Below, in pieces: positions 3,893-36,913 of a stretch of DNA of 64,000 nucleotides (positions are counted from its first letter, which is position 1; every line of letters begins with the position of its first letter). Origin of the DNA: Thermoanaerobaculia bacterium (GTDB lineage: Bacteria; Acidobacteriota; Thermoanaerobaculia; Gp7-AA8). The DNA lies in the NCBI GenBank assembly GCA_035546335.1, contig DATKDP010000016.1, positions 135,380-199,379 on the forward strand, in the 5' to 3' direction. The notes under the pieces are model-generated. The model was not told where the DNA came from and did not search any database. It saw only the letters and a list, made by a program, of their open reading frames with translations. Both the position numbers and the translations under genes were made by a program.

Positions 3893-4480
3893 ATGAAACT
3901 GATCGTCGGGTTGGGAAACCCGGGCCGCGAGTACGACAAGACGAGACACAACATCGGGTTCCGCGTGGTCGACGCCTTCGCCCGGAAGTTCAGAGTCGCT
4001 TTCGACAGGCACGAGAAGGACGCGCTCACCGGGCGGGGCCGGGTTGCGGGACGGGCGGTGGTCCTTGCAAAACCGCTGACCTGGATGAATCTGTCCGGCT
4101 CGGCCGTCAAGGGTCTGGCCGGACTGTATGTCGACTCGATGAGCGACATGATGGTCGTGTACGATGACATCGACCTGCCGGCGGGCCGGCTGCGGATCCG
4201 GGAGAGAGGCTCGGCAGGAACGCACAATGGAATGAAATCGATCGTGGCGGCGATTGGAACCGAGGAATTTCCGAGGCTGCGAGTCGGCATCGGGGGCGGC
4301 TCGAGCGAGCAGATGCTGAGCGAGTACGTTCTCGATGCGTTTTCCCCCGAAGAGGAGATCCTCATCGAGCGGGCTGTCGGTCGGGCCGTCGATGCGCTGG
4401 TTCTCTTTGCTCGAGGCGAGCTTCTTCGGGCGATGAACGAGTTCAATCGCGATCCCGAGATCGGGCTCGCGGAGGAGTGA
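3893..4480 (+). CDS. pth: Peptidyl-tRNA hydrolase
   Basis: MKLIVGLGNPGREYDKTRHNIGF ... canonical Pth N-terminus and length (195 aa). Confidence 0.9.
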   Translation: MKLIVGLGNPGREYDKTRHNIGFRVVDAFARKFRVAFDRHEKDALTGRGRVAGRAVVLAKPLTWMNLSGSAVKGLAGLYVDSMSDMMVVYDDIDLPAGRLRIRERGSAGTHNGMKSIVAAIGTEEFPRLRVGIGGGSSEQMLSEYVLDAFSPEEEILIERAVGRAVDALVLFARGELLRAMNEFNRDPEIGLAEE

Positions 4481-6081
4481 TGACGCGGATCATGGAACGA
4501 CTTCCGGCGACGTTGGCTGAGCTGCAGGCCAGCGGTCATCGAGTGCGTTCCGTCAAGGACGAGATGCGGGAGAACCTTCTGCTGAAGCTCGCTCGCAGGG
4601 AGATCACCTTCCCCGGAGTCCACGGGTACGAGCGGACGGTCATCCCCGCGCTGCACAACGCGATCCTTTCGCGCCACGACGTCATCCTTCTCGGATTGCG
4701 AGGGCAGGCGAAGACGCGCATTCTGCGAGCCTTGACCATGCTGCTGGACGAGCGGATTCCCGCCATCGAGGGATGCGAGATCAACGATCCGCCCGACGCT
4801 CCGTCCTGCAAGCGATGCAGAAGAATGGCTGCCGAGCTGGGAGATCGTCTTCCTCTTCGGTGGATCCATCGATCCGAGCGTTATCGCGAGAAACTGGCGA
4901 CCCCCGACGTCACGGTGGCGGATCTGATCGGCGACATCGATCCGATCAAGGCGGCGAATCAGCGGCTGACCTATGCCGACGAGGAAGTGATCCACTACGG
5001 CATCATCCCGAGGACCAATCGGGGAATCTTCGCCATCAACGAGCTGCCCGATCTGGCACCTCGAATCCAGGTCTCGCTGCTCAACATCCTCGAGGAGCGC
5101 GACCTTCAGATCCGTGGGTTTCCCATCCGGATTCCACTCGACGTCGTGCTCGTCTTCAGCGCGAATCCGGAAGATTACACGAATCGCGGAAACATCATCA
5201 CACCGCTCAAGGATCGGATCGATTCGCAGATCCTCACGCATTATCCGGTCGATGTGGCGACGGCGATGCGGATCACCGAGCAGGAAGCATGGCTCGATCG
5301 CCGCAGCGACGAGCTCCGTATCGAGATCCCTTCCTACGTCCGGGAGCTCGTCGAGCACGTCGCCTTCGTCGCGCGCGAATCGGATCTCGTCGACCAGTCC
5401 TCGGGGGTCTCGGCGCGCATGACCATCTCCGCGATGGAGCTCCTCCAGTCGAATCTCGAGCGCCGCGCCGCGCTGACGAGCGATCCTTTCGTTTTTCCCA
5501 GGCTCGCCGATCTGTCGATGATCCTCCCCGCCATCACCGGAAAAGTGGAGATGGTGTACGAAGGAGAGCAGCAGGGAGCGGAGGTCGTCGCCCGAAAGCT
5601 GGTCGGACAAGCCGTGGCTCGCCTCTTTCATCGAAGGTATCCGCCGGTCGAGCGCGCAGGGCGCCCGCTCGGGGGAAGCGAACGCCGGCGAGGATACGGC
5701 GAGCCGGAGGGAGAGCTCGACGATCTGCTCGGAACGAGCAGGCGTGCTCCGGCGCGCGCCAGCGAGTCCGCCGATCAGACGAGCGTGGAGGGAGAGGCCG
5801 ATTACGACGCCATCGTCGAGTGGTTCATGCAGGGAAACAAGATCACGCTTTCCGACGAACAGCCCTTTGCACACTATTTCGAAGAGCTGTGCCGCGTGCC
5901 GAAGCTCGCGGAGATCGCTCGGAGATTCATGAAACCGCATCATGACGCCGAGCTGGCTTTCGGAATGGAGTTGATTCTCGAAGGGCTTCATCAGGCACTC
6001 CGGTTGACCCGCGAGGATCTCGATTCGACGATCACGTTCGCGGAAGCGATGAAGTTCAACATCCTTCGAACGGTGAAGTGA
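4477..6081 (+). CDS. AAA+ ATPase of the Mg-chelatase ChlI/BchI-like class
   Basis: Degenerate P-loop LLGLRGQAKT. ChlI-like sensor region RGIFAINELPDL ... LLNILEERDLQIRGFPIRIPLDVVLVFSANPEDY ... ITPLKDRID. ATGA overlap with the pth stop. Confidence 0.6.
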   Translation: MMTRIMERLPATLAELQASGHRVRSVKDEMRENLLLKLARREITFPGVHGYERTVIPALHNAILSRHDVILLGLRGQAKTRILRALTMLLDERIPAIEGCEINDPPDAPSCKRCRRMAAELGDRLPLRWIHRSERYREKLATPDVTVADLIGDIDPIKAANQRLTYADEEVIHYGIIPRTNRGIFAINELPDLAPRIQVSLLNILEERDLQIRGFPIRIPLDVVLVFSANPEDYTNRGNIITPLKDRIDSQILTHYPVDVATAMRITEQEAWLDRRSDELRIEIPSYVRELVEHVAFVARESDLVDQSSGVSARMTISAMELLQSNLERRAALTSDPFVFPRLADLSMILPAITGKVEMVYEGEQQGAEVVARKLVGQAVARLFHRRYPPVERAGRPLGGSERRRGYGEPEGELDDLLGTSRRAPARASESADQTSVEGEADYDAIVEWFMQGNKITLSDEQPFAHYFEELCRVPKLAEIARRFMKPHHDAELAFGMELILEGLHQALRLTREDLDSTITFAEAMKFNILRTVK

Positions 6082-6082
6082 G

Positions 6083-6511
6083 ATGGTGAAGATCACGACG
6101 GACATTCCGGCGACCCTGTCGCGCCAGATGGAGCGGTTGATCCGCGAAGGATGGTTTCCCAGTGAAGAGGCGATCGTTCGCGAGGCAATCGTTCAGTTTC
6201 TCGACGCCAAGTCGTTCCTCGGCGATTCCCCCCGGATGCTCCATCGCTTCGCCGCCGATGCCCTGAACGAATCGAAGCCGGAGACCGCCCTCAAATTCGT
6301 CGACCGCGGAATCTCGCTTCTGACCTCCCAGGGGTTCGTCGATCTCACGCTCTACCAATCGATGGTGGAGCTCCGCGTCCAGATTCTCCTCGTTCTCGGG
6401 CGTGACGCCGACGCCCGCTCGATGCTCGAGGAAGCGCGCGAGCGGCTGCCGAACAGCCCCGGAATCGCCAAGTGGCTCTCGCGACTCTCGCGGCGCGAGA
6501 CTCCCGCATGA
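6083..6511 (+). CDS. Small ribbon-helix-helix (CopG/ParD-like) protein with a TPR-like C-terminal half
   Basis: N-terminal ITTDIPATLSRQMERLIREGWFPSEEAIVREAIVQFL is a classic RHH beta-strand plus two helices. Sits between the AAA+ and vWA genes with overlapping ends. Confidence 0.45.
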   Translation: MVKITTDIPATLSRQMERLIREGWFPSEEAIVREAIVQFLDAKSFLGDSPRMLHRFAADALNESKPETALKFVDRGISLLTSQGFVDLTLYQSMVELRVQILLVLGRDADARSMLEEARERLPNSPGIAKWLSRLSRRETPA

Positions 6512-7602
6512 GACACCGCTACGGCTGGCTGGATCCCGAGCTGATCCGGAGACTTCTGAGCGAGCTCGGTCTGCGCAGGCTCTTCAATCACCTGCTGCTC
6601 CAGTCGGGAGGCGACGTCGAGGAGGCGATGCAGTGGATGCGCGCTCTGCAGCAGCAGGGCTATCTCGATCCGAACATCGATCTGGAGGCCTTCTTCGCGC
6701 GACTGGCCGAGGAGAACGTGTTCGGCCCCGACGGTCAGGGAAATCTGGTGCTCGGTGCGGCGGGGGAGCGGCAGATCCGCAGAGACGCACTGGACGAGAT
6801 CTTCGGAGGACTGAAGAAGTCTTCAGCCGGCTACCACTCGGTGGCATCGGCGGGAGAAGGAAGCGAGCGGCTGACCGAGACGCGCCCCTATCGATTCGGT
6901 GACGATCCCGCATCCCTCGATTCCGTCCGAACCGTTCAGAATGCCCTGCGCAACGGCAATCCGTTCGAACGGATCACGATCACCGAAGATGATCTGGAAG
7001 TCTTCGAGACGGAGCACAACAGCAGTTGTGCCACGGTGGTGATGATCGACGTCTCGCATTCGATGATTCTCTATGGCGAGGACCGCATCACGCCCGCGAA
7101 GAAAGTCGCTCTGGCGCTGACCGAACTGATTCTCACGAAGTATCCGAAGGATTCGATCGATGTCGTCCTCTTCGGCGACGACGCGACGGAGATCCCGGTG
7201 TCGGAGATCCCCTACGTCAAAGTGGGCCCCTATCACACGAACACGAAGGCGGGACTGGAGCTCGCGCAGAACATCCTCCGCCGGAGAAAGCACAACAACA
7301 AGCAGATCTTCATGATCACCGACGGGAAGCCGTCGGCGTTAGTTGAGAACGGTCGTCTCTACACCAATTCGTTCGGTCTCGACATGAGGATCGTCAACCG
7401 AACCCTGGAAGAGGCGGACCACTGCAGGAGGGCCCAGATCCCGATCACGACGTTCATGCTGGCAACGGACACGATGCTGGTGAACTTCGTCGAGCAGCTC
7501 TCGAAGATCAACCGCGGACGCGCCTTCTACTCCTCCCCTGATCGCCTGGGTGAGTACATCCTCGCCGACTACATTCGCAACCGGCGAAAATTCGTCCACT
7601 GA
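6508..7602 (+). CDS. von Willebrand factor A (vWA) domain protein
   Basis: VVMIDVSHSM (MIDAS DxSxS) ... FGDDATEI ... IFMITDGKPSA. Start taken at ATG 6508 (ATGA overlap with the upstream stop). The track start at 6472 is an alternative. Confidence 0.7.
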   Translation: MRHRYGWLDPELIRRLLSELGLRRLFNHLLLQSGGDVEEAMQWMRALQQQGYLDPNIDLEAFFARLAEENVFGPDGQGNLVLGAAGERQIRRDALDEIFGGLKKSSAGYHSVASAGEGSERLTETRPYRFGDDPASLDSVRTVQNALRNGNPFERITITEDDLEVFETEHNSSCATVVMIDVSHSMILYGEDRITPAKKVALALTELILTKYPKDSIDVVLFGDDATEIPVSEIPYVKVGPYHTNTKAGLELAQNILRRRKHNNKQIFMITDGKPSALVENGRLYTNSFGLDMRIVNRTLEEADHCRRAQIPITTFMLATDTMLVNFVEQLSKINRGRAFYSSPDRLGEYILADYIRNRRKFVH

Positions 7603-7603
7603 T

Positions 7604-10252
7604 TCAGGGGTAATACCCCCGGACCGTCTTTGCCTTTCCATCGGTCACTTCCACCGAGACCTGCCGCCATTTCGAGCCGGCCTGCACTCCATCGGGGGGG
7701 TAGAATCCGAGCAGATACTGCGAGCGAAGCTCCTGCTGGATCTCGTTGTAGATCCTGCTGAGGTCGACGACGTTGTCGATGTAGTAGACGTTCCCGCCGG
7801 TCTCGGACGCGAATCGCCCGAACTTGTACCGCGCATCGATCTCGTTGGCCCTGATGCCGATGCCGATTCCGTAGATCGGCACGCTGGTCCGCTTCGCGTA
7901 CTCGAGCGCCTGATCGAACGAGAATCGGGAGGCCGTGTCTTTGCCGTCGGTGATCACGATGAGCGCCCGCTGCCCTTTGATGCTCTGAAAGTTGTAGAGG
8001 GAGAAGACGATCGCATCGTACAGGGCGGTCGCTTCCTCGGCGCGCAGCGAAGCGAGACCGGCGTGAAGGGCCGAAAGCTGCCTGCTCCACTTCTGCAGCA
8101 CGACCGGCTGCGTGTCGAACGAGACGAGAAACGCCTGGTCGCCTGGCTTGAGCACCGACTTCAGGAACTGCGCTCCCGTTTTCTGCGCCTCCGGCATCCG
8201 GTCGCGCATCGACCCGGAACTGTCGATGGCGATGCCGAGCGAGAGCGGGAGATTCTGCACGTACTCGAATTTGGCCAGTTTGACCGTGGTTCCCTCGTCC
8301 TTGACCGTGAAGGCCGATTCGGTCAGCCCGAGCACCGGCCGCCCGCGGCTGATCACAGTGGTCGGAAGCTCGACGAGATGCACTTCGACCTGCTGGAGAA
8401 ACTCGGGAGAGTTCAGGAAGACGACATCCTCCGCCGGCTGCAGGGTCTCGTCCTCGAGCGTTGCGACCGCTCGCAGATAGGCGATTCCGAGATCGGCGGG
8501 AACCCGGATCGTCTGGACGAAGGGTGGAGAGTAGAGGGTCGCCAGCCTCGTCTCGTTCAGATAGAGCTCGATGTTCTCGAGGGTCTTTCCCTCCGGGATC
8601 GACGCATCGATCTCCACGCGCACATTGCCCTGGACGTTGGCGGCGATTCGGGGGGAGACGATGCGCACGCGGAAGGGGTCGGCTCCGACGTTCACGACGA
8701 GCTCGTCTCCACTGACGATTTTTTGATTCGCATCGAGGCCGACCGCGCGAACGCGACGCGCCTGCGGAACCTCGCCGAGATCGAGATTGAGCGCGAAGGG
8801 AGGCGAGCGCTTCACCATGATCTTCTTCCCGTCGAGATAGAACTCGACGGACTTGATCTCTTCGCCCGTGACGATCGTGTCGATGTGATGCAGGCCGGTC
8901 AGCAGGTCGTTGGGCAGCGGAACGAGGCGGAGCCGCGATTCGCCCTCGATGAAGTTGCTCTGGATGCGGGCGATCGTCTCGGCTCCGTCGGCCTTCCGCG
9001 CCGCGAGCGCGGGATCTTCCTGGACCGCAGGGACATCGAGCGTGGCCTCGACGATCGCCTCGGCGCCCGAGTTCGCGTCGATGATCTTGATCCGGGAGAC
9101 ATAGCCGGCAGGGCGCAGAAAACGCTCGATGACGATGGGAATCGTCTCTCCCGCCTGCTCTGCGGGGATGTCGTACTTGTATCGATAGGTCTCGAACATC
9201 TTTCCGTCTTTGAGCACCTCGCCGCTGACGTCGACGTTGTAATAGCCGACTCCATCGATGTCGTTGAGTCGAAGGTGATCGCGGGTGATGGGAATCGTCA
9301 TCTGCACCGAGGTGCGCGCTCCCCGTTTGCCGGGATACCGAGTGGACACCTCACCCGTGACCAGTCTGGGGGCCGCTGGGTTGGAGAGAACCGCCGTGCG
9401 GAGGATCTTGTTGATGTCCTCCTCGTTGACTTTCGGCGGGCTGTAGATCGATTGCAGTTGCGTGGAGTTCTGTTGCGACTGAAACACCGCCGTCAGGATC
9501 TCGCGGCCATCTTTGCAGTCGAAGCCGATTTTGCTCACCCGGGACATGGCGTCGAGCGACTCGAAGAAAACCGCGTTGACGGCTCGCTGGAGGTCGCCTA
9601 GATAGCTGGCGATGATCTCGGTGGAGAGCAGATCCTGGAGCGATTCGTTGGAGCTCCCCATGCCGATCGGCGTCCAGAGCCGGTAGTCGCCTCCGTTGCG
9701 AGGTCTGTAGAAAAGAAGGCGCACGTCGTGTCCTATGCCGGGGATGTGGTGATAGCGCCAGATCTCGAGCGGCTGAAGATAGCGGTCGCACTCGGTGGGC
9801 AGGCGGTCGCCCGGCCGCCCGTGGATCAGGTAGATCTTCGTGCGATCGGACGTCATGTACTTGAACTGTTGTCTCGCTTCCTCCAGCATCTCGCCGTACT
9901 GTTCTCGGTAGTCGTTGTAGGCGCTCTTCGGATCGGGATCGCGCCGCCTCCAGAACTCCTCGATGTAGAGGTCGCGCTGGGCATCCGATTCGAGGAGAAG
10001 AAAGGTGTTGAGCTCGGTCTGGAGCAGGATCGGCTCGACGTCCTTGAGAAACGTCTGATATTTCTCGCTGAGCTTCGCGATCGCGTCCCGTCGCTCGCGC
10101 CGCGACAGCTTCCGCACTCCGGGATCTGCCGTCGGATCGGGCTTCGCGATCTGCGCGGCTTCGGCAGGCGCTGGATTGTTTGCAGCGGCATGGACGTTGA
10201 TGGACGGGAAGATCAGGAAGACCGCTGCTGCTGCGACGAGAATGTTCTTCAT
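7604..10252 (-). CDS. Secreted GWxTD-domain protein with a C-terminal vWA domain
   Basis: Signal peptide MKNILVAAAAVFLIFPSINVHA. GWxTD-like core (EFWRRRDP ... TDRTKIYLIHGRPGDR ... EIWRYHH). vWA MIDAS IAIDSSGSM ... ITDGKDT near the C-terminus. Confidence 0.7.
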   Translation of the reverse strand: MKNILVAAAAVFLIFPSINVHAAANNPAPAEAAQIAKPDPTADPGVRKLSRRERRDAIAKLSEKYQTFLKDVEPILLQTELNTFLLLESDAQRDLYIEEFWRRRDPDPKSAYNDYREQYGEMLEEARQQFKYMTSDRTKIYLIHGRPGDRLPTECDRYLQPLEIWRYHHIPGIGHDVRLLFYRPRNGGDYRLWTPIGMGSSNESLQDLLSTEIIASYLGDLQRAVNAVFFESLDAMSRVSKIGFDCKDGREILTAVFQSQQNSTQLQSIYSPPKVNEEDINKILRTAVLSNPAAPRLVTGEVSTRYPGKRGARTSVQMTIPITRDHLRLNDIDGVGYYNVDVSGEVLKDGKMFETYRYKYDIPAEQAGETIPIVIERFLRPAGYVSRIKIIDANSGAEAIVEATLDVPAVQEDPALAARKADGAETIARIQSNFIEGESRLRLVPLPNDLLTGLHHIDTIVTGEEIKSVEFYLDGKKIMVKRSPPFALNLDLGEVPQARRVRAVGLDANQKIVSGDELVVNVGADPFRVRIVSPRIAANVQGNVRVEIDASIPEGKTLENIELYLNETRLATLYSPPFVQTIRVPADLGIAYLRAVATLEDETLQPAEDVVFLNSPEFLQQVEVHLVELPTTVISRGRPVLGLTESAFTVKDEGTTVKLAKFEYVQNLPLSLGIAIDSSGSMRDRMPEAQKTGAQFLKSVLKPGDQAFLVSFDTQPVVLQKWSRQLSALHAGLASLRAEEATALYDAIVFSLYNFQSIKGQRALIVITDGKDTASRFSFDQALEYAKRTSVPIYGIGIGIRANEIDARYKFGRFASETGGNVYYIDNVVDLSRIYNEIQQELRSQYLLGFYPPDGVQAGSKWRQVSVEVTDGKAKTVRGYYP

Positions 10253-10283: not shown

Positions 10284-11444
10284 ATGCGAATTTACCTCGA
10301 TAACAACGCCACGACTCCAATCCATCCAGCCGTCCTCGAAACGCTCGATCGGACGCTCCGGTCGAGCTGGGGCAACGCATCAAGTATTCATGAAGAAGGC
10401 CAGCGGGCCCGGCGTGAGCTGGAGCAGGCGAGGGAATCCGTTGCTGCTCTCATCCACTGCGAGCCTCGCGAGCTGGTCTTCACGAGCGGCGGCACCGAAT
10501 CGAACAATGCCGCGATCCATGGCTCTGTTGTAGCCTCATTCCCCTCGCAGGCCGGTTACAACATCGTCACAAGTGCCATCGAGCATCCTTCGGTCCTCGA
10601 GCCTCTCCGTGATCTCGAAGCTCGCGGCTGCAGCGTCACGCGCGTTGCACCCGGGCGCGACGGCGCCATCTCCGCCCGCGCCATGATCGATGCGATTTGT
10701 CCCGATACCCGGCTCGTCTGCCTGATGCTGGCCAACAACGAGACCGGAGTCCTGCAGCCGGTGGCCGAGGTGGCCGCAGCCTGTCGCGAGCGGGGCATCC
10801 ACATGCATTGCGACGCCGTGCAGGGAGGAGGGAAGGTCGAAGTCGATGTTCGCCGCCTCGACTGCGATACGCTCTCGCTGTCGGGCCACAAGATGCACGG
10901 GCCGAAGGGAATCGGAGCCCTCTTCGTCCGCCCGGGGACCACGCTCCACCCGCATCTCGCCGGAGGAGCCCAGGAGCGGCGTCGCCGTGCCGGTACCGAG
11001 AACGTCCCGCAGGCGGTTGCGTTCGGCGTCGCGTCTGCGATCGCGTGGCAGGAGACGTCGGTGTGGAGCGAGATCGCGCTCTTGCGCGATCGTCTGGAAA
11101 CAGAGCTGCGGCTGCTGATTCCCGGACTCGTGATCCATGGGGAAGGGACCACCCGCCTGCCCAACACATCGAATCTGCGCTTCCCGGGGGTCGACGCCGA
11201 GGGGCTGGTGATCGCACTCGATCTCCAGGGTGTCGCCGTCTCGACCGGCTCGGCCTGTTCCTCGGGACGCGTCGAGCCGAGCCATGTTCTTCTGCAGATG
11301 GGACTTTCGGAAGAAGACGCGAAGAGCTCGGTTCGCATATCATTGAGCAGGTTCACGGCTGCCGCGGAGATCGATCGCCTGATCGAGCTTCTCGGTGAGC
11401 TCGTTCCGAAAACGCGAAGGGATGCGGCGATACGCGCGAGCTGA
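10284..11444 (+). CDS. Cysteine desulfurase (NifS/IscS family, class V aminotransferase fold)
   Basis: MRIYLDNNATTP ... FTSGGTESNN ... SLSGHKMHGPKGIGALFVR. PLP-Lys in SGHK. Confidence 0.85.
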   Translation: MRIYLDNNATTPIHPAVLETLDRTLRSSWGNASSIHEEGQRARRELEQARESVAALIHCEPRELVFTSGGTESNNAAIHGSVVASFPSQAGYNIVTSAIEHPSVLEPLRDLEARGCSVTRVAPGRDGAISARAMIDAICPDTRLVCLMLANNETGVLQPVAEVAAACRERGIHMHCDAVQGGGKVEVDVRRLDCDTLSLSGHKMHGPKGIGALFVRPGTTLHPHLAGGAQERRRRAGTENVPQAVAFGVASAIAWQETSVWSEIALLRDRLETELRLLIPGLVIHGEGTTRLPNTSNLRFPGVDAEGLVIALDLQGVAVSTGSACSSGRVEPSHVLLQMGLSEEDAKSSVRISLSRFTAAAEIDRLIELLGELVPKTRRDAAIRAS

Positions 11445-12583
11445 TGATGAACGGGCGGAAGATCCTCGAGGGTGACCTCGCCGCTCTGCAGCTTCCCGAC
11501 GTCCTCAGTTTCATTGCGATGATCCGCAAGAGCGGGAAGATGGTCCTGCAGCAGGGATCGCTCGAGCGGACCATTCACTGGAAGGACGGCGAGGTAGCAT
11601 TCGCCACTTCCAATTCACCCGAGCATTCCCTCGGACTCTTTCTTCTTCGAAACGGAAAGATCACTCAGGAGCAGTATGAGGAATCACGGGAGCGAATGAC
11701 TCCGCAGACGCGGCATGGAAAGCTGCTGGTACAGATGGGGGTGATCTCACCGAAGGATCTCTGGTGGGCGGTCAAGAATCAGGTTCTGGAGATCATCTAT
11801 TCGATGTTCACCTGGCGCGACGGGTCGTTCGTCTTTCTCGACGAGGTCGAAGAGATCAGCCAGGAACGAATCATTCTCTCGATCAATCCATCCGTCGTCA
11901 TCATGGAGGGGGTGAGGAGAGTCGATGAAGAGGCGAGAATCCGCGAAAAGATCACCAGTCTGGATATGATCTTCGTCCGCCTGCCCGGGGCCGAGCCGAT
12001 CCTTCCCGACTTCGACATCACGCACGAGGAGGTGCGCCTGTTTCACGAGATCGACGGACATCGCTCGATTCGAGACCTGATCGGCTCGACCGATCTGACC
12101 GAGTTCGAAGTGACACGGATCCTTTTCCAGCTCATCTCCGCGCGTCTGATCGAGCCGGTCTCGCCGGAGAAAAGCGGAAGGCCCGTATTTCTCGATGTCG
12201 AGGACTCACCGGAACTGCTCAAGATCGTTTCCACCTACAACGACATGTTCGATCGTCTCTACGCGACTCTTCAGTCCGCGGTCGGCGAAGAGCGAGCACG
12301 CGAGATCTTCACCAACGTGCTGCAGAGCTCCGATACCGACGAGCTCTGGTCGGGAGTGTTTTTCGACCCTTCCGGGCGGTTCGACGAGAACATGCTGATC
12401 GCCAACATCTCCGAGCTTCCGTTCGAGAAGAGAAAGTCGGTTCTCGACGAAGGGTTGAATACTCTTCTGTCGATTCAGCTCTTCGAGGTGTCGCAGCATC
12501 TCGACGCTGCGACCAAGGTGCAGGTGTTTCGATTCATCTCCGATCAGAAAGCTCAGATCGAGAAAGCGACTGCCGAGTTTTGA
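11444..12583 (+). CDS. DUF4388-domain protein, hypothetical
   Basis: N-terminal GDLAALQLPDVLSFIAMIRKSGKMVL motif typical of DUF4388. Start overlaps the stop of the desulfurase (TGATGATG). Confidence 0.55.
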   Translation: MMNGRKILEGDLAALQLPDVLSFIAMIRKSGKMVLQQGSLERTIHWKDGEVAFATSNSPEHSLGLFLLRNGKITQEQYEESRERMTPQTRHGKLLVQMGVISPKDLWWAVKNQVLEIIYSMFTWRDGSFVFLDEVEEISQERIILSINPSVVIMEGVRRVDEEARIREKITSLDMIFVRLPGAEPILPDFDITHEEVRLFHEIDGHRSIRDLIGSTDLTEFEVTRILFQLISARLIEPVSPEKSGRPVFLDVEDSPELLKIVSTYNDMFDRLYATLQSAVGEERAREIFTNVLQSSDTDELWSGVFFDPSGRFDENMLIANISELPFEKRKSVLDEGLNTLLSIQLFEVSQHLDAATKVQVFRFISDQKAQIEKATAEF

Positions 12584-18554: not shown

Positions 18555-18717
18555 CTGGCCGAAGTCCCGAAGGGACGATTGAAAATAGCCCGGGACGAAG
18601 TCCCGGGTAGGGTAGCGCACAAGACACGAAGACCGCCAGTCCCGTAGGGACGGTTGACCGCCCGGGATGATGTCGCCGATTCGCCAGGGGCGGGCGCGGG
18701 ACGCCCGCTCTCCCCTG
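18555..18717. repeat. Three roughly 35-bp tandem units (GAAGTCCCGnAGGGAC cores) followed by a copy of dispersed hairpin module M2 (18686-18717)
   Basis: gaagtcccgaagggacg / gaagtcccgggtagggt / cagtcccgtagggacgg, then GGGGCGGGCGCGGGACGCCCGCTCTCCCC. Confidence 0.55.
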
Positions 18718-22789: not shown

Positions 22790-23570
22790 GGCGCTTCAAC
22801 AAGGCATCCTCGAGGAGATGAGACTCTGGACTCCGGAGAAGGGAACGCCACAAGGCGCGGTGATCAGCCCGTTGCTGGCGAATCTCTATTTGCACCCTGT
22901 CGACGTGGAAATGCGCGAGGCGGGGCTCCGAATGATTCGCTATGCAGACGACATGGTCATCCTGTGCGGGAGTCGCGAAGAGGCGGAACACGCACTGACC
23001 AAGCTCCGAAGCGCCCTCGAAGCGAAGCAACTCACGCTCCACCCGGTCAAGACGAAGCTCGTCGATGCGACGCTACGGCTAGGATTCCAGTTTCTCGGAT
23101 ACGACTTCTTCGGAGGACGACGGTATCCGCGCGAGCCGAGTGAACGGAAACTGCGCGAGCAGATCCGGAAACGAACTCGCAGGAATCGATCCGACAATCT
23201 GAAGACGATCATCGAAGATCTCAACAAGGTACTTCGAGGATGGTTCGCGTATTTCAAGCACCCTCACGCCGGGCGTTCGAAGGTCTCGACGGCTACATTC
23301 GCTACCGGCTCAGAGCCATTCTGAGCAAGCGAAGCCGACGCGGCCGGAAACGACGCCGTGGGCGTGGAAAGGACCATTTCCGCTGGCCCAACGCCTACTT
23401 CCGTGCGCAAGGTCTCTTCTTCCTTCACGAGAACCATCTGCGCGCCCTACGGTCCCATGCAGGGTGAACCACCAACTGGAGAGCCGGATGCGGGGAGATC
23501 CGCCAGTCCGGTTCGGAGGGAGGGGGAGGCCGGGAGGCCTCTCCCTCCCCCTATCTCGGGGCCGCCCGCT
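22790..23570 (+). mobile_element. Group II intron remnant: 5'-truncated, frameshifted RT/maturase ORF plus RNA domain V (23481-23514)
   Basis: RT motifs GTPQGAVISPLLANLYL, IRYADDMVILC, thumb/X LRGWFAYFKH. After a frameshift near 23265 comes LDGYIRYRLRAILSKR ... RWPNAYFRAQGLFFL, the maturase C-terminus. Domain V GAGCCGGATGCGGGGAGATCCGCCAGTCCGGTTC. RT domains 0-3 and RNA domains I-III are missing. Confidence 0.7.
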
Positions 23571-23581
23571 CTCCCTGGATG

Positions 23582-23750
23582 ATGGCAAGCACCCGGACGA
23601 AGCTATTGCGCTTCGTTACTGCTTCGCAAGCCCTCTGTTCTATCCCTCGCGCAAATGCTTCGTCCCTACGATGGGCGTTGCGAATTTGTTGGCGCACCCG
23701 CGCATCCGGGGGCGGGCGTGGGATGCCCGCCCCCGGTTCGGACTTTACGG
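23582..23750. repeat. Dispersed repeat copy (module M1 followed by hairpin module M2)
   Basis: atggcaagcacccggacgaagctattgcgc ... tcgcgcaaatgcttcgtccctacga ... gggggcgggcgtgggatgcccgccccc. About 85% identical to the inverted copy at 58845-58985. Gives near-identical spurious peptides MASTRTKLLR in the ORF track. Confidence 0.8.
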
Positions 23751-25253
23751 AATCTTCGGCGTCGCGAAGAACGACTGCGACCGGCCGCCGCGCGTGTAGC
23801 GTGTCACATAGAGGCGGAGGTACTGGCCGCTGCGCGCCTGCTCGACGCTGCGCCGGAACTGCTCGGTACTGGTGAGCGGCTGCCCGTTCACCTGGGTGAT
23901 CACGTCGCCGGGCTGCAACCCTGCTTCGCCGGCGGGGGAGACCTCCCGCACGCTGGTGATCACGACTCCTTGGACGTCGTCTCCGAGTCCGAACTGGCGG
24001 CGGAGCATCGGAGTGATCTGCTGGACCGAGACACCGAGCCTGTTCTGCGCGGGACGGTCGGGGCCGCTTTCGGACTCGCCGTCGGGGGCGAGCGAGGCGG
24101 GCCGCTCTTTGGTCGTCGCGGTCACGGTGCGTTGCTGGCCGTTTCGCAGCAGAGTGATGCGGACCTGAGCGCCGGGACCCTTCTCGGAGACGTAGTCGAT
24201 CAGGTCGCGGGTGCTGTTCACCGCCTGCCCGTCGACCTGGGTGATCACGTCGCCCGGCTGAAGTCCGGCCTTCTCCGCCGGCTCGCCCGCCACGACGGCC
24301 TCGACGAACGCGCCGCGCACGGAAGGCAGACTGAAGGCGTCTCTCCGCTCGGGACTGATATTGGTGACGTTGATGCCGAGGTAGCCGCGGCTGACGCGCC
24401 CCTTCTCCCGGAGCTGCGGGAGAATTTTCCTCGCCACGTTGATCGGAGTGGCGAATCCGAGTCCCTGGGCCATGGCGCGCATCGCGGTGTTGATTCCGAC
24501 GACGTCGCCGTTGATGTTGCACAGCGGTCCGCCGGAATTGCCGAAGTTGATCGCCGCATCGGTCTGGATGAAGTTCTCGAAGGACGAGGTCGCCTCGCTG
24601 ATCCCGAGGGCGCGGTTCTTGGCGGAGATGACCCCGACGGTCAGGGTGTTCTCGAACTGGAGGGGATTGCCGATGGCGATCGCCCAGTCGCCGACGCGGA
24701 TGGCGTCGGAGTCTCCGAGCGTGACGGTGGGAAGCTGTTCCTTGACCTCGATCTTGATCAGTGCGATGTCGGTGGCGGGATCGCGGCCGATGACTTTCGC
24801 ATCGGCGACCTTGTCCGCCTCGCCGTACTGCACGCGGATGCTCGTCGCTCCCTCCACGACGTGATTGTTGGTCAGGATGTAGCCGTCAGCGGAGATGATG
24901 AAGCCCGAGCCCCCGCTGAGCTGCCGTCGCTCCTCTTCCTCTCCCTGCTGCCGCCGTGGATCGGGAAAGAAAAAGTCGAAGGGATTGACCTCGCGTCCCC
25001 GCCGTTCGCTGCTGCGGTAGATCTCGGTCGTGGTGATGGAGACGACGGCTGGCATCACGCGCGCCGCGACGTCCGCGAACGAGGGGATCGTCATCGTGGG
25101 CACGGCTGCCTGGGTCGTCTGAATCGGCGGCGGTGCCGGTTGGGCGCTCGAAGGCCTCAGCCATCCGAAGTCTGCGGTGATGATCATTCCGAATGCGATC
25201 GATGCGACGATGATCGCTCCGATCGAAAGGTTGCGCTTCATTGCCTGCGTCAT
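23745..25253 (-). CDS. Periplasmic serine endoprotease DegP/HtrA family with two PDZ domains
   Basis: Signal/TM N-terminus. Catalytic triad context TNNHVV ... DIALIKI ... GNSGGPL. Two PDZ segments (GAFV ... GLQPGDVITQV, repeated). Confidence 0.85.
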   Translation of the reverse strand: MTQAMKRNLSIGAIIVASIAFGMIITADFGWLRPSSAQPAPPPIQTTQAAVPTMTIPSFADVAARVMPAVVSITTTEIYRSSERRGREVNPFDFFFPDPRRQQGEEEERRQLSGGSGFIISADGYILTNNHVVEGATSIRVQYGEADKVADAKVIGRDPATDIALIKIEVKEQLPTVTLGDSDAIRVGDWAIAIGNPLQFENTLTVGVISAKNRALGISEATSSFENFIQTDAAINFGNSGGPLCNINGDVVGINTAMRAMAQGLGFATPINVARKILPQLREKGRVSRGYLGINVTNISPERRDAFSLPSVRGAFVEAVVAGEPAEKAGLQPGDVITQVDGQAVNSTRDLIDYVSEKGPGAQVRITLLRNGQQRTVTATTKERPASLAPDGESESGPDRPAQNRLGVSVQQITPMLRRQFGLGDDVQGVVITSVREVSPAGEAGLQPGDVITQVNGQPLTSTEQFRRSVEQARSGQYLRLYVTRYTRGGRSQSFFATPKIP

Positions 25254-25399
25254 GGAATTCGAATCCTCCTCGGAAACCGCCGGCCGGCGGCTATGGTCAT
25301 GGAAAGCATCTCACACACCAGAAGTGAGACGTACTCTGCGGGAAAAATGTTTCAGCGGAAGTTTGTCATGCCGGAGGGCGTTCACACATTGTTGACCTG

Positions 25400-26437
25400 A
25401 TGACAGACTTCCAGATGCATCCGTTCCGGATCGGCGGGGTCACCGTCGATCCGCCGCTGGCCCTCGCCCCCATGGCCGAGGTGACCGATACCTATTATCG
25501 GTCTCTTGTCAAAGAGGTAGGAGGCGTGGGTCTCGTGGTTTCGGAGTTCATCTCGGCCGAGGGCCTCACCAGGAACAACGAGCGCAGCTCCCGGATGCTG
25601 GCCTTCTCCGAGAGCGAGCGGCCGGTAGCCATCCAGATCTACGGCGGCGACCCCGAACGGATGGACGATGCGGCGGCGATCGTCGAGCGCGAGGGTGTCG
25701 ACATCGTCGACGTCAACATGGGCTGTCCGGTGAAGAAGGTGGTCAACAGCGGTGCGGGCTCTGCATTGCTCAAGGACTTCGATCGGGCGGCGCGCATCGT
25801 CGAGAAGATTCGCCGGCGCGTGAAGATTCCGGTGACGGTGAAGGTCCGCAAGGGATGGGAGAGCGACGACGTGCTTCCGCTGCTGAAGCGCTTCGAGGAG
25901 ATCGGTGTCGCCTCGATCGCGATTCACGGCCGGACGCGCAACGAGGCCTACACCGGCGCGAGCGACTGGGCCTACATCCGGGAGGTGAAGCGCGAGCTCA
26001 CCATCCCCGTCTTCGGCAATGGCGACGTCAGAACGCCGGAGGACGCGATCCGGATGTTTCGTGAGACCGGCTGCGACGGGGTGATGATCGGCCGCGCGGC
26101 GCTTCACAATCCGTTCATCTTCCGCGACATCGGCGCGTTCCTGAGCGGCGAGCGCGTGTGCGACGAGGTGGAGCGTCGCATCGGCGCGATGATCCGTTAT
26201 CTCGAGAAGATCGATGCCGCTCCACAGGCGGACAAGTGGAAGCTGCACAAGGCGCGGACGGTCATCGGCTGGTTCTCGAAGGGAATTCCGCATTCGAAGG
26301 ATCTGCGCCAGGGCCTCGCGGACATCACCTCGATCGATGATGTCATCCGGCTTCTCGATACGCATCTCCGCCATGCCGTCTCGGGCACGTTCGATCCCGG
26401 CGACCTCGAAGCGGCCACCCTCTCGCTGGCAGGGTGA
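25400..26437 (+). CDS. dusB: tRNA-dihydrouridine synthase
   Basis: LAPMAEVTDTYYRSL ... IYGGDPE ... VDVNMGCPVKKV ... VKVRKGW. FMN-binding TIM barrel Dus signature. Confidence 0.9.
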   Translation: MTDFQMHPFRIGGVTVDPPLALAPMAEVTDTYYRSLVKEVGGVGLVVSEFISAEGLTRNNERSSRMLAFSESERPVAIQIYGGDPERMDDAAAIVEREGVDIVDVNMGCPVKKVVNSGAGSALLKDFDRAARIVEKIRRRVKIPVTVKVRKGWESDDVLPLLKRFEEIGVASIAIHGRTRNEAYTGASDWAYIREVKRELTIPVFGNGDVRTPEDAIRMFRETGCDGVMIGRAALHNPFIFRDIGAFLSGERVCDEVERRIGAMIRYLEKIDAAPQADKWKLHKARTVIGWFSKGIPHSKDLRQGLADITSIDDVIRLLDTHLRHAVSGTFDPGDLEAATLSLAG

Positions 26438-33695: not shown

Positions 33696-34069
33696 GCAAT
33701 GTCATCAATAACGGCTGCTCGCCTCTCGACGTACCAGAAAGCTGATTTCGAAAAGCTCGGGGCGGAGAGTAACGTTCTCAACGCCTGGCGGAGCGCCTTC
33801 GCCAAGATCATGCACGAGGTGCGGCCGGTAGTATAGCGGAACAGGGAGTACTGATTGCAAGTGGCAAGTTGGCTTTGCGGTTTTGCACCGGCCGTGCGCC
33901 CGCGCGGGTGAATGGCGCCGCGTCCGCAGCCGCGAGTGACCCGATCGGGCCGATTGATGCTCGCGACGAGCTCGATCGTGCCGAAATCGGGCTCGCGGAA
34001 GGCCTGTTCGTTGACGCCTTTCCGAGCACTGTGTGAAAATGCAGGGACTTGCTGAATACGAATATCCCC

Positions 34070-36913
34070 ATGCGCGAAGAGATTCTCGTGGTCGAGTACG
34101 AGCCGCGGTATACGGAGCGGGTCAAGCAGGCCCTGTCGGGTCAGCAGCTTTCGCCCTTGTTCGCGAAGGACGGCGAGGAAGCCATGCTCGCACTCGAGAG
34201 CGGTCACCCGCGCCTGATCGTTCTCTCCTCGGTCGTTCCCCGCGTGAGCACCACGGAACTGATCCGGCGCATCCGAAGTCACTCGCTTCACCGCGACACG
34301 CCGATTCTTCTCACCATGTCGGGATACACAGGGCAATCTCCGAGCTCCGATGCCGCGCGGATCGGCGCATCCGACATTCTCGCAAAGCCGTACTCGGAGG
34401 TCGAATTCCTGGCAAAAGTCAGGACGATCCTCGGGCTCCCAGGCGCGGCCGCTCCGGCGGACGAGCCTGAGACGTTGATCATTCCATCCCCTCTGCGCGC
34501 GGCTCGGGCGCCGCAGCCGGACGAGGGGGACGCGACGCTCACCTCCGGCGACATTTTCGGCGAGGTTCTGGCCGACCAGAAGACGGTTCCACAGCCTTCG
34601 CGAAGGGCGTCGGCAAGAATGTCGAGCGACGATCTCGACAAGATGCTCGCCGACACGCTTTCCGGGGTCCGTCCCACGCCGGCGCGGAGAAAGCCGGCGG
34701 AAGCATCATCGCCGGAACCGAAACCGGAACCGAAGTCGAGGGGAGGGATGAGCGACATCGACCGGTTGCTCGAGGATACCCTTTCGGGACTGGAGAAGAC
34801 GGTTCGAATGAAGGTGCCCTCGGTCGAGCCGCCCGCAGCAGCGCAGTCGGCCGCACCTCCGCCAGCGGCCGCACCCCGTTCCACCGCGGTTCCACCTCCC
34901 GCCCCTCCGCCGTTCGAGCCATCGACTGCCGGGAAGGTCTCGATCTCGTCGCCGGTGCTGCCGCCGGAGCATGCCGAGCCGCTCATGGAGAAGGAAGACA
35001 CCGCGGCCGAGAGCGATGGAGCTCGTTTCGGGCAGTACGTGCTCCTCGATCGGATCGCGACGGGCGGCATGGCCGAGGTGTGGAAGGCCCGGATGCGCGG
35101 AGTCGAAGGATTCCAGAAGATCGTCGCCATCAAGAAGATCCTTCCGCACCTTTCGGACAACGAAGAATTCGTGACGATGTTCGTCGACGAGGCGAAGCTC
35201 GCCGCACAGTTGAACCACAACAACATCATTCACATCTATGACCTCGGCCGCATCGCGAGCTCCTACTACATCGCGATGGAATACATCGACGGTCATGATC
35301 TGAAAACGATCCTGAAGAAGGGGGAGGAGCGCGGGCTGCCGATTCCGCTCGAGCTCGCGATCTTCATCGCATCGAAAGTCGCGGCGGCGCTCGACTATGC
35401 ACATCGCCGGCGCGATTTCAACGAGAAGGAGCTGGAGCTCGTTCATCGCGACGTCTCGCCGCAGAACGTTTTGATCTCTCACGAGGGCGACATCAAGCTG
35501 TGCGATTTCGGCATCGCCAAAGCCGCCTCGAAGGCCTCTCACACCCACGCAGGCTCGTTGAAAGGGAAGCTGCAGTACATGTCTCCGGAGCAGGCGTGGG
35601 GCCGGCGCATCGATCGCCGTTCCGATCTGTTCGCACTCGCCACGGTCCTGTTCGAGATGCTGGCGGGAAGAAAACTTTTCAGCGGCGAGAACGAGCTCTC
35701 CATTCTCGACGAAGTGCGCGAAGCTCGCGTCGTCGCTCCCTCGTCGATCAACGACGAGGTGCCGCCGTCGGTCGATGCCATCGTTCTCAAGGCGCTGGAG
35801 AAGGAGCCCGACAATCGCTACCAGTCCGCAGGAGAGATGGCGCGCGATCTCGATGCGGTGCTCTACGGCTTCCGTCCGACACCGACCAGCGCCGATCTCG
35901 CAATCTACATGCATCGTCTCTACAGTGCGGAAGCGGCGCACTTCGCGCCGGTCTCTCCTCTTCCGGCGCCGTTCGAGGATCAGGACGACGGGGCTTTCTC
36001 GATCGAGCCCGCCACGGTCATCCAGCGTCCAAGGCCCGCAATTCCTCACCCGGCCGTGTCAGAGCAGACGATCGAAGAGCCGTTCGCCATCGCGCCGCCC
36101 CAACCGGCGAAAAAGAAACGTTCTCTCGCGCTCGTCGCCGTCGCGCTCGTCGTCGTGGCGGGCCTCGCCACCGGAGGATACCTCGTCATGCGACCGAGCG
36201 AGCCGGCAGCGCAGCAGACTGTGGCGCCGCGTGTCGCCGCTGCGGCTCCTGCTGCTGCTCCCTCCGCCGCCTCCGACACTTCGGCAGCGCCCATGGACGT
36301 CATGGACCCGGCCGTTGCACCCCTCCCCCAGGTCGGATCGGCACTCCCGCCGACCGATCAGGCGCGAGTCGATGAAGAGGTTCGCCGCCGCCTCGATGCG
36401 GAGCGCCAGCGACTCGAACAGCAGAAGACCCAGATTCTCACAGCCGATCGAGCGCGGCAGCAGCAGGCCGCGCCCCCCGAAACCGTGGCGGCTGCGGTTC
36501 CATCCGTAGTCCCGAGTGCGACGACGAGAGAGCCCGAGCCTCCACCTCCGGCGGTTTCGACCGCGCAGCAGGCAGCGGCGGTACCGCCGCCCTCGGAGCC
36601 GGCGCGAACGACGGTGCGTGAGGGAGAGTTGGTCGAGCAGGGAACCGAAGGACTGCTGCCACCGGAGGTCATCGAACAATTCAGGCCTCCCTATCCCCCT
36701 CTGGCCCGTTCGCAAAGGGTCGAGGGCGTGGTGATCGTTTCGGCATTGATCTCCGAAACGGGTCAGGTTCTCGAGACGCGCATTCTGCGAGGGATACCCC
36801 TATTGAATGATGCGGCGCTCCAGGCGGTGCGCCGATCGAAGTTCCGTCCCGGCACGAAAGATGGCGTCCGTGTGAAAGCCTACAAGACGATGACCGTTCC
36901 ATTTAGACTGTAG
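34070..36913 (+). CDS. Multidomain signalling protein: pseudo-receiver (REC-like), Pro/Ala-rich linker, Ser/Thr protein kinase-like domain, TM helix, Pro-rich periplasmic linker, C-terminal TonB_C domain
   Basis: REC-like fold with D-to-S at the phospho-acceptor (LIVLSSVVP) and EY instead of DD. Kinase motifs GGMAEVW, VAIKK, HRDVSPQN, DFG, SPEQ. TM ALVAVALVVVAGLATGGYLV. TonB_C motif PPYPPLARSQRVEGVVIVSALISETGQVLETRILRGIPLLNDAALQAVRRSKFRPG. First ATG at 34070; the track's 34049 is a TTG. Confidence 0.75.
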   Translation: MREEILVVEYEPRYTERVKQALSGQQLSPLFAKDGEEAMLALESGHPRLIVLSSVVPRVSTTELIRRIRSHSLHRDTPILLTMSGYTGQSPSSDAARIGASDILAKPYSEVEFLAKVRTILGLPGAAAPADEPETLIIPSPLRAARAPQPDEGDATLTSGDIFGEVLADQKTVPQPSRRASARMSSDDLDKMLADTLSGVRPTPARRKPAEASSPEPKPEPKSRGGMSDIDRLLEDTLSGLEKTVRMKVPSVEPPAAAQSAAPPPAAAPRSTAVPPPAPPPFEPSTAGKVSISSPVLPPEHAEPLMEKEDTAAESDGARFGQYVLLDRIATGGMAEVWKARMRGVEGFQKIVAIKKILPHLSDNEEFVTMFVDEAKLAAQLNHNNIIHIYDLGRIASSYYIAMEYIDGHDLKTILKKGEERGLPIPLELAIFIASKVAAALDYAHRRRDFNEKELELVHRDVSPQNVLISHEGDIKLCDFGIAKAASKASHTHAGSLKGKLQYMSPEQAWGRRIDRRSDLFALATVLFEMLAGRKLFSGENELSILDEVREARVVAPSSINDEVPPSVDAIVLKALEKEPDNRYQSAGEMARDLDAVLYGFRPTPTSADLAIYMHRLYSAEAAHFAPVSPLPAPFEDQDDGAFSIEPATVIQRPRPAIPHPAVSEQTIEEPFAIAPPQPAKKKRSLALVAVALVVVAGLATGGYLVMRPSEPAAQQTVAPRVAAAAPAAAPSAASDTSAAPMDVMDPAVAPLPQVGSALPPTDQARVDEEVRRRLDAERQRLEQQKTQILTADRARQQQAAPPETVAAAVPSVVPSATTREPEPPPPAVSTAQQAAAVPPPSEPARTTVREGELVEQGTEGLLPPEVIEQFRPPYPPLARSQRVEGVVIVSALISETGQVLETRILRGIPLLNDAALQAVRRSKFRPGTKDGVRVKAYKTMTVPFRL

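Follow-up and report, generated by a model that had tools for sequence, protein, structure and literature searches.

We analysed a 64,000-nt stretch of DNA from a Thermoanaerobaculia bacterium (GenBank contig DATKDP010000016.1, positions 135,380 to 199,379 of the forward strand), referred to below as the window. Near its start lies a compact group of genes that encode an AAA+ ATPase, a small protein in which a probable ribbon-helix-helix (RHH) head precedes tetratricopeptide repeats (TPR), and a von Willebrand factor A (vWA) protein with a metal ion-dependent adhesion site (MIDAS). We read positions 4480–7602 as a translationally coupled operon that was probably built around an ancient, widespread and stand-alone two-gene AAA+/vWA module. 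The genes and the motifs within them are as follows.

3893–4480, + strand: pth, peptidyl-tRNA hydrolase, the first gene of the operon in this lineage (Pept_tRNA_hydro E 1e-62; TIGR00447 182 bits)
4480–6081, + strand: AAA+ ATPase of 533 aa, in the ChlI/BchI-LonB clade and a family of its own
4693–4716, + strand: Walker A of the ATPase, GLRGQAKT, non-canonical, with Ala in place of the usual Gly before the Lys
5029–5055, + strand: Walker B of the ATPase, FAINELPDL, non-canonical, with Asn in place of Asp
6083–6511, + strand: RHH-TPR accessory protein of 142 aa, a probable RHH at residues 1–47 and then five TPR-type helices at residues 50–139
6218–6232, + strand: LGDSP of the RHH-TPR protein, invariant, opening the invariant stretch where RHH and TPR join, a junction modelled with low confidence
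6508–7602, + strand: vWA protein of 364 aa, cytoplasmic, with an N-terminal part of the 'Rv0959_3rd' type and the vWA domain from about residue 176
7048–7062, + strand: MIDAS DxSxS of the vWA protein (D181-V-S183-H184-S185), from the cross-phylum alignment

The ORF list and its translations contain all four ORFs that an earlier note on this DNA had described, and proteins already deposited in databases allowed us to correct some of the gene boundaries given there. The ATPase is 100% identical to a database entry of 533 aa (P0001), so we place its start at the ATG at 4480, which overlaps the pth stop codon (4478–4480) by 1 nt (TGATG); the alternative GTG at 4477 would create a GTGA overlap. Thus the ATPase gene does overlap pth, as the earlier note held, but not in the ATGA form it gave, and the protein has 533 rather than 534 residues. 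Similarly, the three genes that it described as overlapping do so only in part. The ATPase stop codon (6079–6081) is separated by a 1-nt spacer from the RHH-TPR start at ATG 6083, but the RHH-TPR stop codon and the vWA start indeed share an ATGA. That vWA start is the ATG at 6508 and not the GTG at 6472, as fixed by a 100% identical database entry (P0391) of 364 aa, a length that replaces the 376 aa of the earlier note. The RHH-TPR protein is likewise 100% identical to a database entry (P0121). Each of these three entries belongs to a metagenome-assembled genome of Thermoanaerobaculia (Acidobacteriota), which the window thus matches. No terminator-like site was found within 4477–7602. Given the overlaps, the single-nucleotide spacer and the lack of an internal terminator-like site, pth and the ATPase, RHH-TPR and vWA genes of this genome appear to be a single operon with translational coupling.

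The ATPase and its vWA partner

In Pfam searches the ATPase matched AAA_5, Mg_chelatase and Sigma54_activat, and its best matches among PDB structures were those of ChlI (8osf, E 6e-8 over residues 40–276, an alignment that covers the ChlI-type insert between Walker A and Walker B). This agrees with its original description as a Mg-chelatase-type AAA+ protein. The NCBIfam models that it matched (ChlD, ChlI and 'putative cobaltochelatase') gave scores of 34–41 bits against curated cut-offs of 467–779; for the BchI/ChlI equivalog TIGR02030 the score was 38.1 bits (cut-off 466.95) and for ChlD TIGR02031 it was 40.9 bits (cut-off 499.55). A family profile built from 31 diverse members matched archaeal LonB and ChlI/BchI equally weakly, at about 1e-5. 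The LonB match (4zpx, 3k1j) falls in the Walker B–sensor region and is limited to residues 163–296, and unlike LonB the ATPase carries no protease domain or membrane anchor. As for MoxR-type proteins, the window ATPase had no AAA_3 (PF07726) match at E<=0.01; 12 of the 31 relatives matched it weakly (best E 5.5e-5), less well than Mg_chelatase or Sigma54_activat. The ATPase is therefore placed within the ChlI/LonB/sigma-54/MCM group of AAA+ proteins, with a ChlI-like architecture, and is a family of its own rather than a chelatase subunit. The profile searches that the earlier note had suggested for placing the protein thus point neither to MoxR (AAA_3 weak) nor to the CobS type (far below the cut-offs).

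In the protein, the AAA+ module (residues ~40–390) leads into a low-complexity linker that varies, and a conserved domain of ~95 aa forms the C-terminus. Its family is large: a word-indexed search returned more than 8000 clusters at 90% identity, and 644 of the 50%-identity representative clusters scored E<=1e-30. Across the 31 aligned sequences, which come from several phyla, the nucleotide site is invariant and unusual at the same time. Neither the canonical GxxGxGK[ST] nor hhhhDE is found in the family; in their place stand GLRGQAKT and AINE, invariant in all 31 members (Walker A G72-L-R-G-Q-A-K78, aligned to ChlI GDRGTGKS; Walker B N187 and E188, with AINE aligned to ChlI YVDE). The conventional motifs further along are invariant as well, namely sensor 1 ANPEDY (N229), the arginine finger PLKDRI (R246) and sensor 2 GVSxR (R313). 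Conservation of a trans-acting arginine finger argues for assembly into a ring with a functional, if unusual, nucleotide site.

The downstream protein matched VWA_2 in Pfam (E 2e-10) and contains the MIDAS pattern DxSxS...T...D. In 34 sequences from several phyla D181, S183, H184, S185 and D272 are invariant and T244/T246 are conserved in at least 90%, so that the MIDAS-containing vWA protein of the earlier note is well founded. No Pfam match to AAA was obtained, hence the protein is without the AAA-like N-terminal domain of ChlD. Neither single-sequence nor family-profile searches found a relative of it among PDB structures. Its predicted structure was poor (pLDDT 51), because the alignment held only close homologues (81–86% identity). 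Winged-helix matches of its N-terminal domain (MarR, GntR and DtxR, all at E>=0.19) were set aside as a lead only, since a fold search with a model of pLDDT 51 cannot be interpreted.

The precomputed Pfam annotation of the identical protein P0391, and of every homologue listed, combines PF27098 ('Rv0959_3rd') with PF13519. This points to the mycobacterial Rv0958/Rv0959 pair (MSMEG_5512/MSMEG_5511 in Mycobacterium smegmatis). In precomputed Pfam annotation and gene maps, the window shows the same arrangement, in which a protein with PF27098 followed by VWA_2 is encoded next to a Mg-chelatase-like AAA+ gene. Rv0958 is annotated as 'possible magnesium chelatase' and Rv0959 is a vWA protein, and the mycobacterial pair is functionally uncharacterised, as is the one in the window. 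Rv0959 is much longer (~670 aa) than the vWA protein studied here and has extra N-terminal domains, and we know of no RHH-TPR gene in mycobacteria. The literature searched held no functional study of Rv0958/Rv0959 or their orthologues; they appear in high-throughput lists only. MSMEG_5512 co-purified in an affinity purification–mass spectrometry study centred on RNA polymerase, with no association with DNA (PMC7092591). Both MSMEG_5512 and MSMEG_5511 are among the ClpC1 interactors (PMC10433963), and MSMEG_5511 is mildly reduced in a pafBC mutant (PMC5656591). Additionally, in M. marinum a B12-resistance screen recovered a transposon that had inserted 49 bp upstream of the orthologue of Rv0958 (PMC11237697).

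To see how the two genes are arranged elsewhere, we scanned species-representative genomes, which returned 80 loci, and located the vWA gene in them by tblastn. The loci come from Acidobacteriota, Bacteroidota (Flavobacteriia, Chitinophagia, Sphingobacteriia and Cytophagia), Ignavibacteria, Chlorobi (Prosthecochloris), Rhodothermales, Planctomycetota, Zixibacteria and Eisenbacteria. In most of the 80 genomes, from at least seven phyla, the ATPase and vWA genes are adjacent, in either order. The ATPase gene comes first, with the vWA gene downstream, in Acidobacteriota, Planctomycetota, Zixibacteria and Ignavibacteria; most Bacteroidota and Prosthecochloris have the vWA gene upstream. All-against-all clustering of the ORFs found only the pair and its antisense ORFs to be common across the loci, and neither this clustering nor Pfam searches of the recurrent neighbours revealed a conserved third or client gene in any of the 80. 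The next most recurrent neighbours (MurB, PriA, GT9, M1 peptidase, Crp and a histidine kinase) reflect housekeeping synteny at the level of lineages and share no common theme. Adjacency of pth to the ATPase is confined to close relatives.

In the seven closest genomes (L001–L007) identity to the window is 81–83% for the vWA protein, 73–76% for the ATPase and 62–69% for the RHH-TPR protein, compared with 62–66% for pth and 57–59% for the divergently encoded response regulator (RR-SpoIIE). Between phyla the pair is still 48% identical. Judged by these identities, it is under stronger constraint than pth, an essential translation factor, in the same genomes. Since the pair evolves more slowly than pth, its client probably belongs to conserved core physiology.

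Several features of individual loci deserve mention. Unrelated genes have often been inserted where the ATPase and vWA genes meet, among them a gene of the metallo-beta-lactamase fold (L016), an HpcH-type aldolase (L011, with similar ORFs in L009 and L010), a GNAT acetyltransferase (L058), an M1 peptidase (L007) and a class-V aminotransferase (L001). In a Bacteroidota metagenome-assembled genome the two genes are separated by a pair of ParE-toxin cassettes (L019:6036-7486), both with a small ORF in front. Between these cassettes lies a chimeric ORF of 122 aa (6557–6925), whose N-terminus by eye resembles that of the vWA protein and whose C-terminus resembles that of the ATPase; it looks like the scar of a duplication. 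M1-family metallopeptidase genes lie next to the pair in 6 of the 80 loci, from Thermoanaerobaculia and from Flavobacteriaceae and so from two phyla, which may be chance (L003:11202-13376, L007:4708-6669, L053:8510-10153, L056:12629-14266, L069:9013-10635 and L079:9023-10666); in L007 the gene sits between the ATPase and RHH genes. In the Rhodothermales loci L028–L030, L038 and L041 no vWA gene is present within 7 kb on either side of the ATPase, in contrast to most other lineages.

The RHH-TPR protein

The AlphaFold2 model of the RHH-TPR protein has a mean pLDDT of 86. It predicts an extended N-terminus and helices at residues 10–21, 28–47, 50–62, 66–82, 88–104, 108–121 and 126–139, joined at a low-confidence hinge (pLDDT below 50 at residues 42–45, mean 61 over residues 41–50). 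The TPR half is recognised directly: TPR_14 scores 24.7 bits on the window protein (cut-off 23.5) and matches 35 of 37 family members, and the top fold matches of the model in the PDB are all TPR proteins of the peptide-binding kind (Hop, RPAP3, SGT, SycD and PilF), at E 4e-3 or weaker. For the head, the profiles of known RHH families matched some of the 37 members, namely CdrS 15 (best E 0.0039), RHH_1 8 (0.012), ParD TIGR02606 4 (0.046) and NikR 3 (0.023), all below threshold. From these matches and the predicted secondary structure, residues 1–47 are a probable ribbon-helix-helix. The fusion proposed in the earlier note is thus secure for its TPR-like helices and probable for its RHH part.

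We found 1548 homologues, which among the matches listed are 65–72% identical, come from Thermoanaerobaculia-type assemblies and carry the JGI label 'Arc/MetJ-type RHH transcriptional regulator'. Conservation of the protein is highest at the hinge and the first TPR helix (FLGDSPRMLHRFAADALNxSKPExALKF) and not in the strand that would read DNA; L46 to N62 are invariant in 37 sequences. The ParD, CopG and Arc proteins offer a close parallel, with an N-terminal strand-helix-helix (here from weak, sub-threshold matches) followed by a C-terminal region that binds a partner. The C-terminal part of the RHH-TPR protein is however a TPR array instead of a toxin-binding tail, no toxin gene accompanies it, and it is extremely conserved compared with typical antitoxins.

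In the genome set, the RHH-TPR gene is restricted to loci whose ATPase shares at least about 73% identity with that of the window. Where the ATPase is 62% identical or less, that is in other Thermoanaerobaculia and Acidobacteriota and in all other phyla, it is absent, and there the ATPase and vWA genes often abut. A metagenome scan for the RHH-TPR gene returned a further 80 loci, which brings the related loci to 160. In 75 of the 78 loci with enough sequence the vWA gene lies immediately downstream of the RHH-TPR gene, and in two more it lies within ~0.5 kb. The ATPase gene lies immediately upstream in 56 loci and within 3 kb in 8; in 10 it is missing from the available upstream sequence, which in 4 of these amounts to 5 kb. 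The near-absolute linkage to the vWA gene, together with the frequent linkage to the ATPase, argues that the RHH-TPR gene is a dedicated partner within this sub-lineage, tied above all to the vWA gene. The earlier note's dedicated RHH gene is therefore upheld for one Thermoanaerobaculia sub-lineage but not as a general component of the module.

Many of the relatives carry a promoter-like element just ahead of the RHH-TPR gene. A -10-like box of the form TANNNT ends 4–14 nt before its start codon in 47 of 86 loci (27 of them have exactly TACAAT), compared with a chance rate of ~5%, a figure that is a rough estimate and was not computed. Loci with the box include L004, L006, L082, L088, L095, L098, L107, L109, L118, L119, L127, L128, L141, L144, L145, L147, L148, L152–L155, L159, L162 and L165. 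Its place just before the start codon suggests that in many relatives the RHH-TPR gene has its own promoter and that RHH-TPR and vWA are expressed from a leaderless or near-leaderless transcript. The gene in the window, which starts 1 nt after the ATPase stop codon, is without such a box. In six loci the palindrome TGTCCGGAT..GGACA (TGTCC-N4-10-GGACA) lies directly upstream of the -10 box (L088:4892-4907, L107:369-384, L118:4966-4981, L152:326-341, L155:1976-1991 and L159:4906-4921). It may be an operator.

Proposed mechanism and its alternatives

Pairs of an AAA+ ATPase and a vWA protein recur as a means to mature or remodel difficult complexes; Mg and Co chelatases, Rubisco, NO reductase and CO dehydrogenase are examples. 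By analogy with the characterised pairs ChlI/ChlD, CobS/CobT, CbbQ/CbbO, NorQ/NorD, CoxD/CoxE and RavA/ViaA, we infer that the ATPase would form a ring motor and that the vWA protein would serve as its adaptor, the MIDAS metal gripping an acidic side chain of a client protein. Nucleotide turnover would then remodel the client, by insertion of a cofactor or by assembly or disassembly of a complex. The client would be encoded elsewhere in the genome and would probably be part of conserved core physiology. The extra C-terminal domain of the ATPase and the N-terminal domain of the vWA protein are obvious candidates for the docking surfaces, and once docked the two proteins would make a non-covalent version of the ChlD order of AAA, linker and vWA.

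In one Thermoanaerobaculia sub-lineage, the RHH-TPR protein would have been added to this machine immediately upstream of the vWA gene. It would combine a dimerising and probably DNA-binding head of the ParD/CopG kind with a peptide-binding TPR body, and most likely use its TPR domain, or else its invariant LGDSP loop, to bind the vWA protein or the ATPase. The invariant Asp of this exposed, flexible loop is, purely as a hypothesis, a candidate acidic ligand for the vWA MIDAS. The protein may thus act as a lineage-specific regulator or adaptor that modulates or targets the machine, including autoregulation of the RHH-vWA transcript. We give the picture as a whole, an orphan AAA+/vWA remodelling pair that one lineage has supplied with an accessory protein, a probability of about 0.6, and hold the particular role of the RHH-TPR protein with less confidence than that. 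Gene order, domain content, motif invariance, phyletic spread and the linkage statistics are direct observations; the formation of a ring, ATP turnover and the binding of a client at the MIDAS would follow the example of the characterised pairs, and the role of the RHH-TPR protein is our deduction.

Several points weigh against this picture. The exchange of Gly for Ala in Walker A and of Asp for Asn in Walker B could mean that hydrolysis is weak or absent, in which case the ATPase would be a nucleotide-gated switch instead of a motor. Docking of the ATPase onto the vWA protein finds no structural support in the poor vWA model, and the likeness to Rv0958/Rv0959 is drawn from the name of a Pfam family rather than from a direct sequence comparison. 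As to the accessory protein, all its RHH assignments are below threshold (best E 0.004–0.05), and a profile of the 47 N-terminal residues retrieved chance matches only and no solved RHH protein from the PDB. No operator upstream of the RHH-TPR gene is conserved across the loci; TGTCC..GGACA was rejected as a general operator since it occurs only in loci that have one divergent upstream gene in common and is absent from the window.

The strongest alternative concerns the accessory protein. Its sole function may be to autoregulate transcription of RHH-vWA (or of pth-AAA-RHH-vWA), in which case it would make no contact with the motor or adaptor and its TPR part would only sense a small ligand or serve oligomerisation. 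The strand-helix-helix pattern of the N-terminus, with its weak CdrS, NikR, ParD and RHH_1 matches, fits such a role, as do the JGI label, the promoter-like box directly upstream in more than half of the loci and the palindrome that abuts it in six. Against this, no operator is common to the loci and none is present in the window, the linkage to the vWA gene is almost absolute, and the invariance (at least 17 residues) is in the linker and the first TPR helix, as is typical of a protein–protein interface, and not in the strand that would read DNA. We therefore regard pure autoregulation as possible but unlikely.

A bolder version of the remodelling picture makes the pair a housekeeping remodeller of core machinery, a bacterial counterpart of the midasin-type AAA+/MIDAS factors; candidates for that machinery would be RNA polymerase, given that MSMEG_5512 co-purified with it, and the ribosome. 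GQAKT/INE would mark a slow, gated motor, and the RHH-TPR protein would be a true third subunit whose LGDSP Asp is inserted in the vWA MIDAS and whose RHH head tethers the machine to DNA. We consider this speculative and rather improbable in its full form.

A divergent Mg or Co tetrapyrrole chelatase motor, equivalent to ChlI/ChlD or CobS/CobT and with its H or CobN subunit encoded elsewhere, is much less probable still. The best PDB and NCBIfam matches of the ATPase and the M. marinum insertion described above speak for it, and like ChlI/BchI with ChlD/BchD the pair has the insert between Walker A and B, the arginine finger and sensors, and a partner with a C-terminal MIDAS vWA domain. The ATPase however differs from ChlI in its far sub-threshold scores, its GQAKT and INE motifs and its extra C-terminal domain, and the vWA protein differs from ChlD as described above. 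No CobN or ChlH homologue was found among the ten largest other ORFs of the window, and no such gene is conserved in any neighbourhood of the 80 loci. The earlier note had reported that a chelatase H-subunit, NO reductase and RuBisCO are absent; the first absence is borne out within those ten ORFs, and for NO reductase and RuBisCO the search was not exhaustive. Additionally, the pair is widespread in non-phototrophs, and it is also present in Prosthecochloris (L045), a phototrophic genus that has its own bacteriochlorophyll chelatase genes.

The same logic of a motor and a MIDAS adaptor is found in the MoxR-class pairs RavA-ViaA, CbbQ-CbbO, NorQ-NorD, CoxD-CoxE and CobS-CobT. The Bat operon adds TPR proteins (BatC and BatE) to it, and 8 of 37 RHH-TPR homologues match the BatC TPR model weakly. 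Unlike in the MoxR-class pairs, the window ATPase is not of the MoxR type, no client gene is adjacent, and the vWA protein is soluble and has a distinct N-terminal domain. Equivalog scores far below the cut-offs and the lack of a linked client gene support the earlier note's view of an uncharacterised pair, one that belongs to none of the chelatase, NorQ/NorD, CbbQ/CbbO and CobS/CobT systems.

The proposal that the module acts on, or assembles, the convergently encoded secreted GWxTD-vWA protein is largely refuted. It draws only on proximity in this one window, where the two stop codons are 1 nt apart; not one of the 160 related loci has the gene next to the module, and the module proteins lack signal peptides whereas the GWxTD protein is exported. 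Just as unlikely is an anti-phage conflict system of the vWA-MoxR type. Such systems have reportedly been described in a published study, their AAA+/vWA architecture resembles ours, and toxin–antitoxin cassettes lie at the ATPase–vWA junction in L019; however, none of the four proteins matched a PADLOC defence model (E<=0.01), the ATPase is not a MoxR protein, the conservation between phyla is very high and above that of pth, the housekeeping synteny is stable, and no effector domain is present.

The remodelling pair is thus a known kind of system, belonging to a family that is already catalogued but uncharacterised. Not encountered in the literature searched were the invariant GQAKT/INE site, the demonstration that the pair stands alone as a module in many phyla, and the RHH-TPR partner of this one lineage. 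Few AAA+/vWA pairs are as widespread or as strongly conserved as this family, which includes the uncharacterised pair of M. tuberculosis. The RHH-TPR partner, being small and invariant, must contact something in the system and so offers a possible handle on function. Should the client prove to be core machinery, a real gap in our picture of the bacterial cell would be filled by this family; if the pair were one more cofactor-insertion chaperone, it would be a routine addition to a known class.

The GWxTD neighbour and other features of the window

Downstream of the operon, and convergent with it, lies the following gene.

7604–10252, - strand: secreted GWxTD / Big_7 / acidobacterial-VWFA protein of 882 aa, a convergent neighbour outside the module

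Its stop codon (7604–7606) is separated by 1 nt from that of the vWA gene (7600–7602), and not by 2 nt as had been stated. The protein scores above the cut-offs of GWxTD TIGR04514 (53.4 bits, cut-off 28) and TIGR03436 acidobact_VWFA (160.9 bits, cut-off 81.25), matches Big_7 (PF17957) and by inspection begins with a hydrophobic, signal-like sequence, so its earlier description as a secreted GWxTD protein with a vWA domain of its own is accurate. In the 160 loci, the closest relatives included, no homologue occurs within the flanks; close relatives instead carry a peptidase S8 gene and serS downstream of vWA. Its vWA domain and the cytoplasmic one are not specifically related (hhalign E 0.17), and paralogy between them was rejected. 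TIGR03436 is a VWA subfamily named for Acidobacteria. Because the gene is never adjacent elsewhere and the vWA domains are not specifically related, its convergent placement is a local accident and the protein is an unrelated neighbour. The neighbourhood survey suggested in the earlier note thus went against conservation of the GWxTD gene with the pair, and half against that of the RHH-TPR gene, which is conserved in one sub-lineage only.

Elsewhere in the window, Rfam searches identified two RNA elements. A group II intron match (RF00029, 52.6 bits) lies at 23479–23554 (+); the 581-aa ORF beside it (23655–25400) had no Pfam match, and no intron-encoded reverse transcriptase was recognised there. 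The Acido-Lenti-1 small RNA motif (RF01687, 50 bits) at 18563–18607 (-) fits an acidobacterial origin of the DNA. Two further proteins are notable for their domain contents. The DUF4388/PatA_N protein at 11444–12583 (+), which starts at the stop codon of a nifS-like gene, weakly matches the MshE-related c-di-GMP-binding motif and the c-di-GMP-activated NfrB. The 954-aa ORF at 34049–36913 (+) encodes an unusual fusion in which domains of a response-regulator receiver and of a Ser/Thr protein kinase are joined to a TonB_C domain at the C-terminus.

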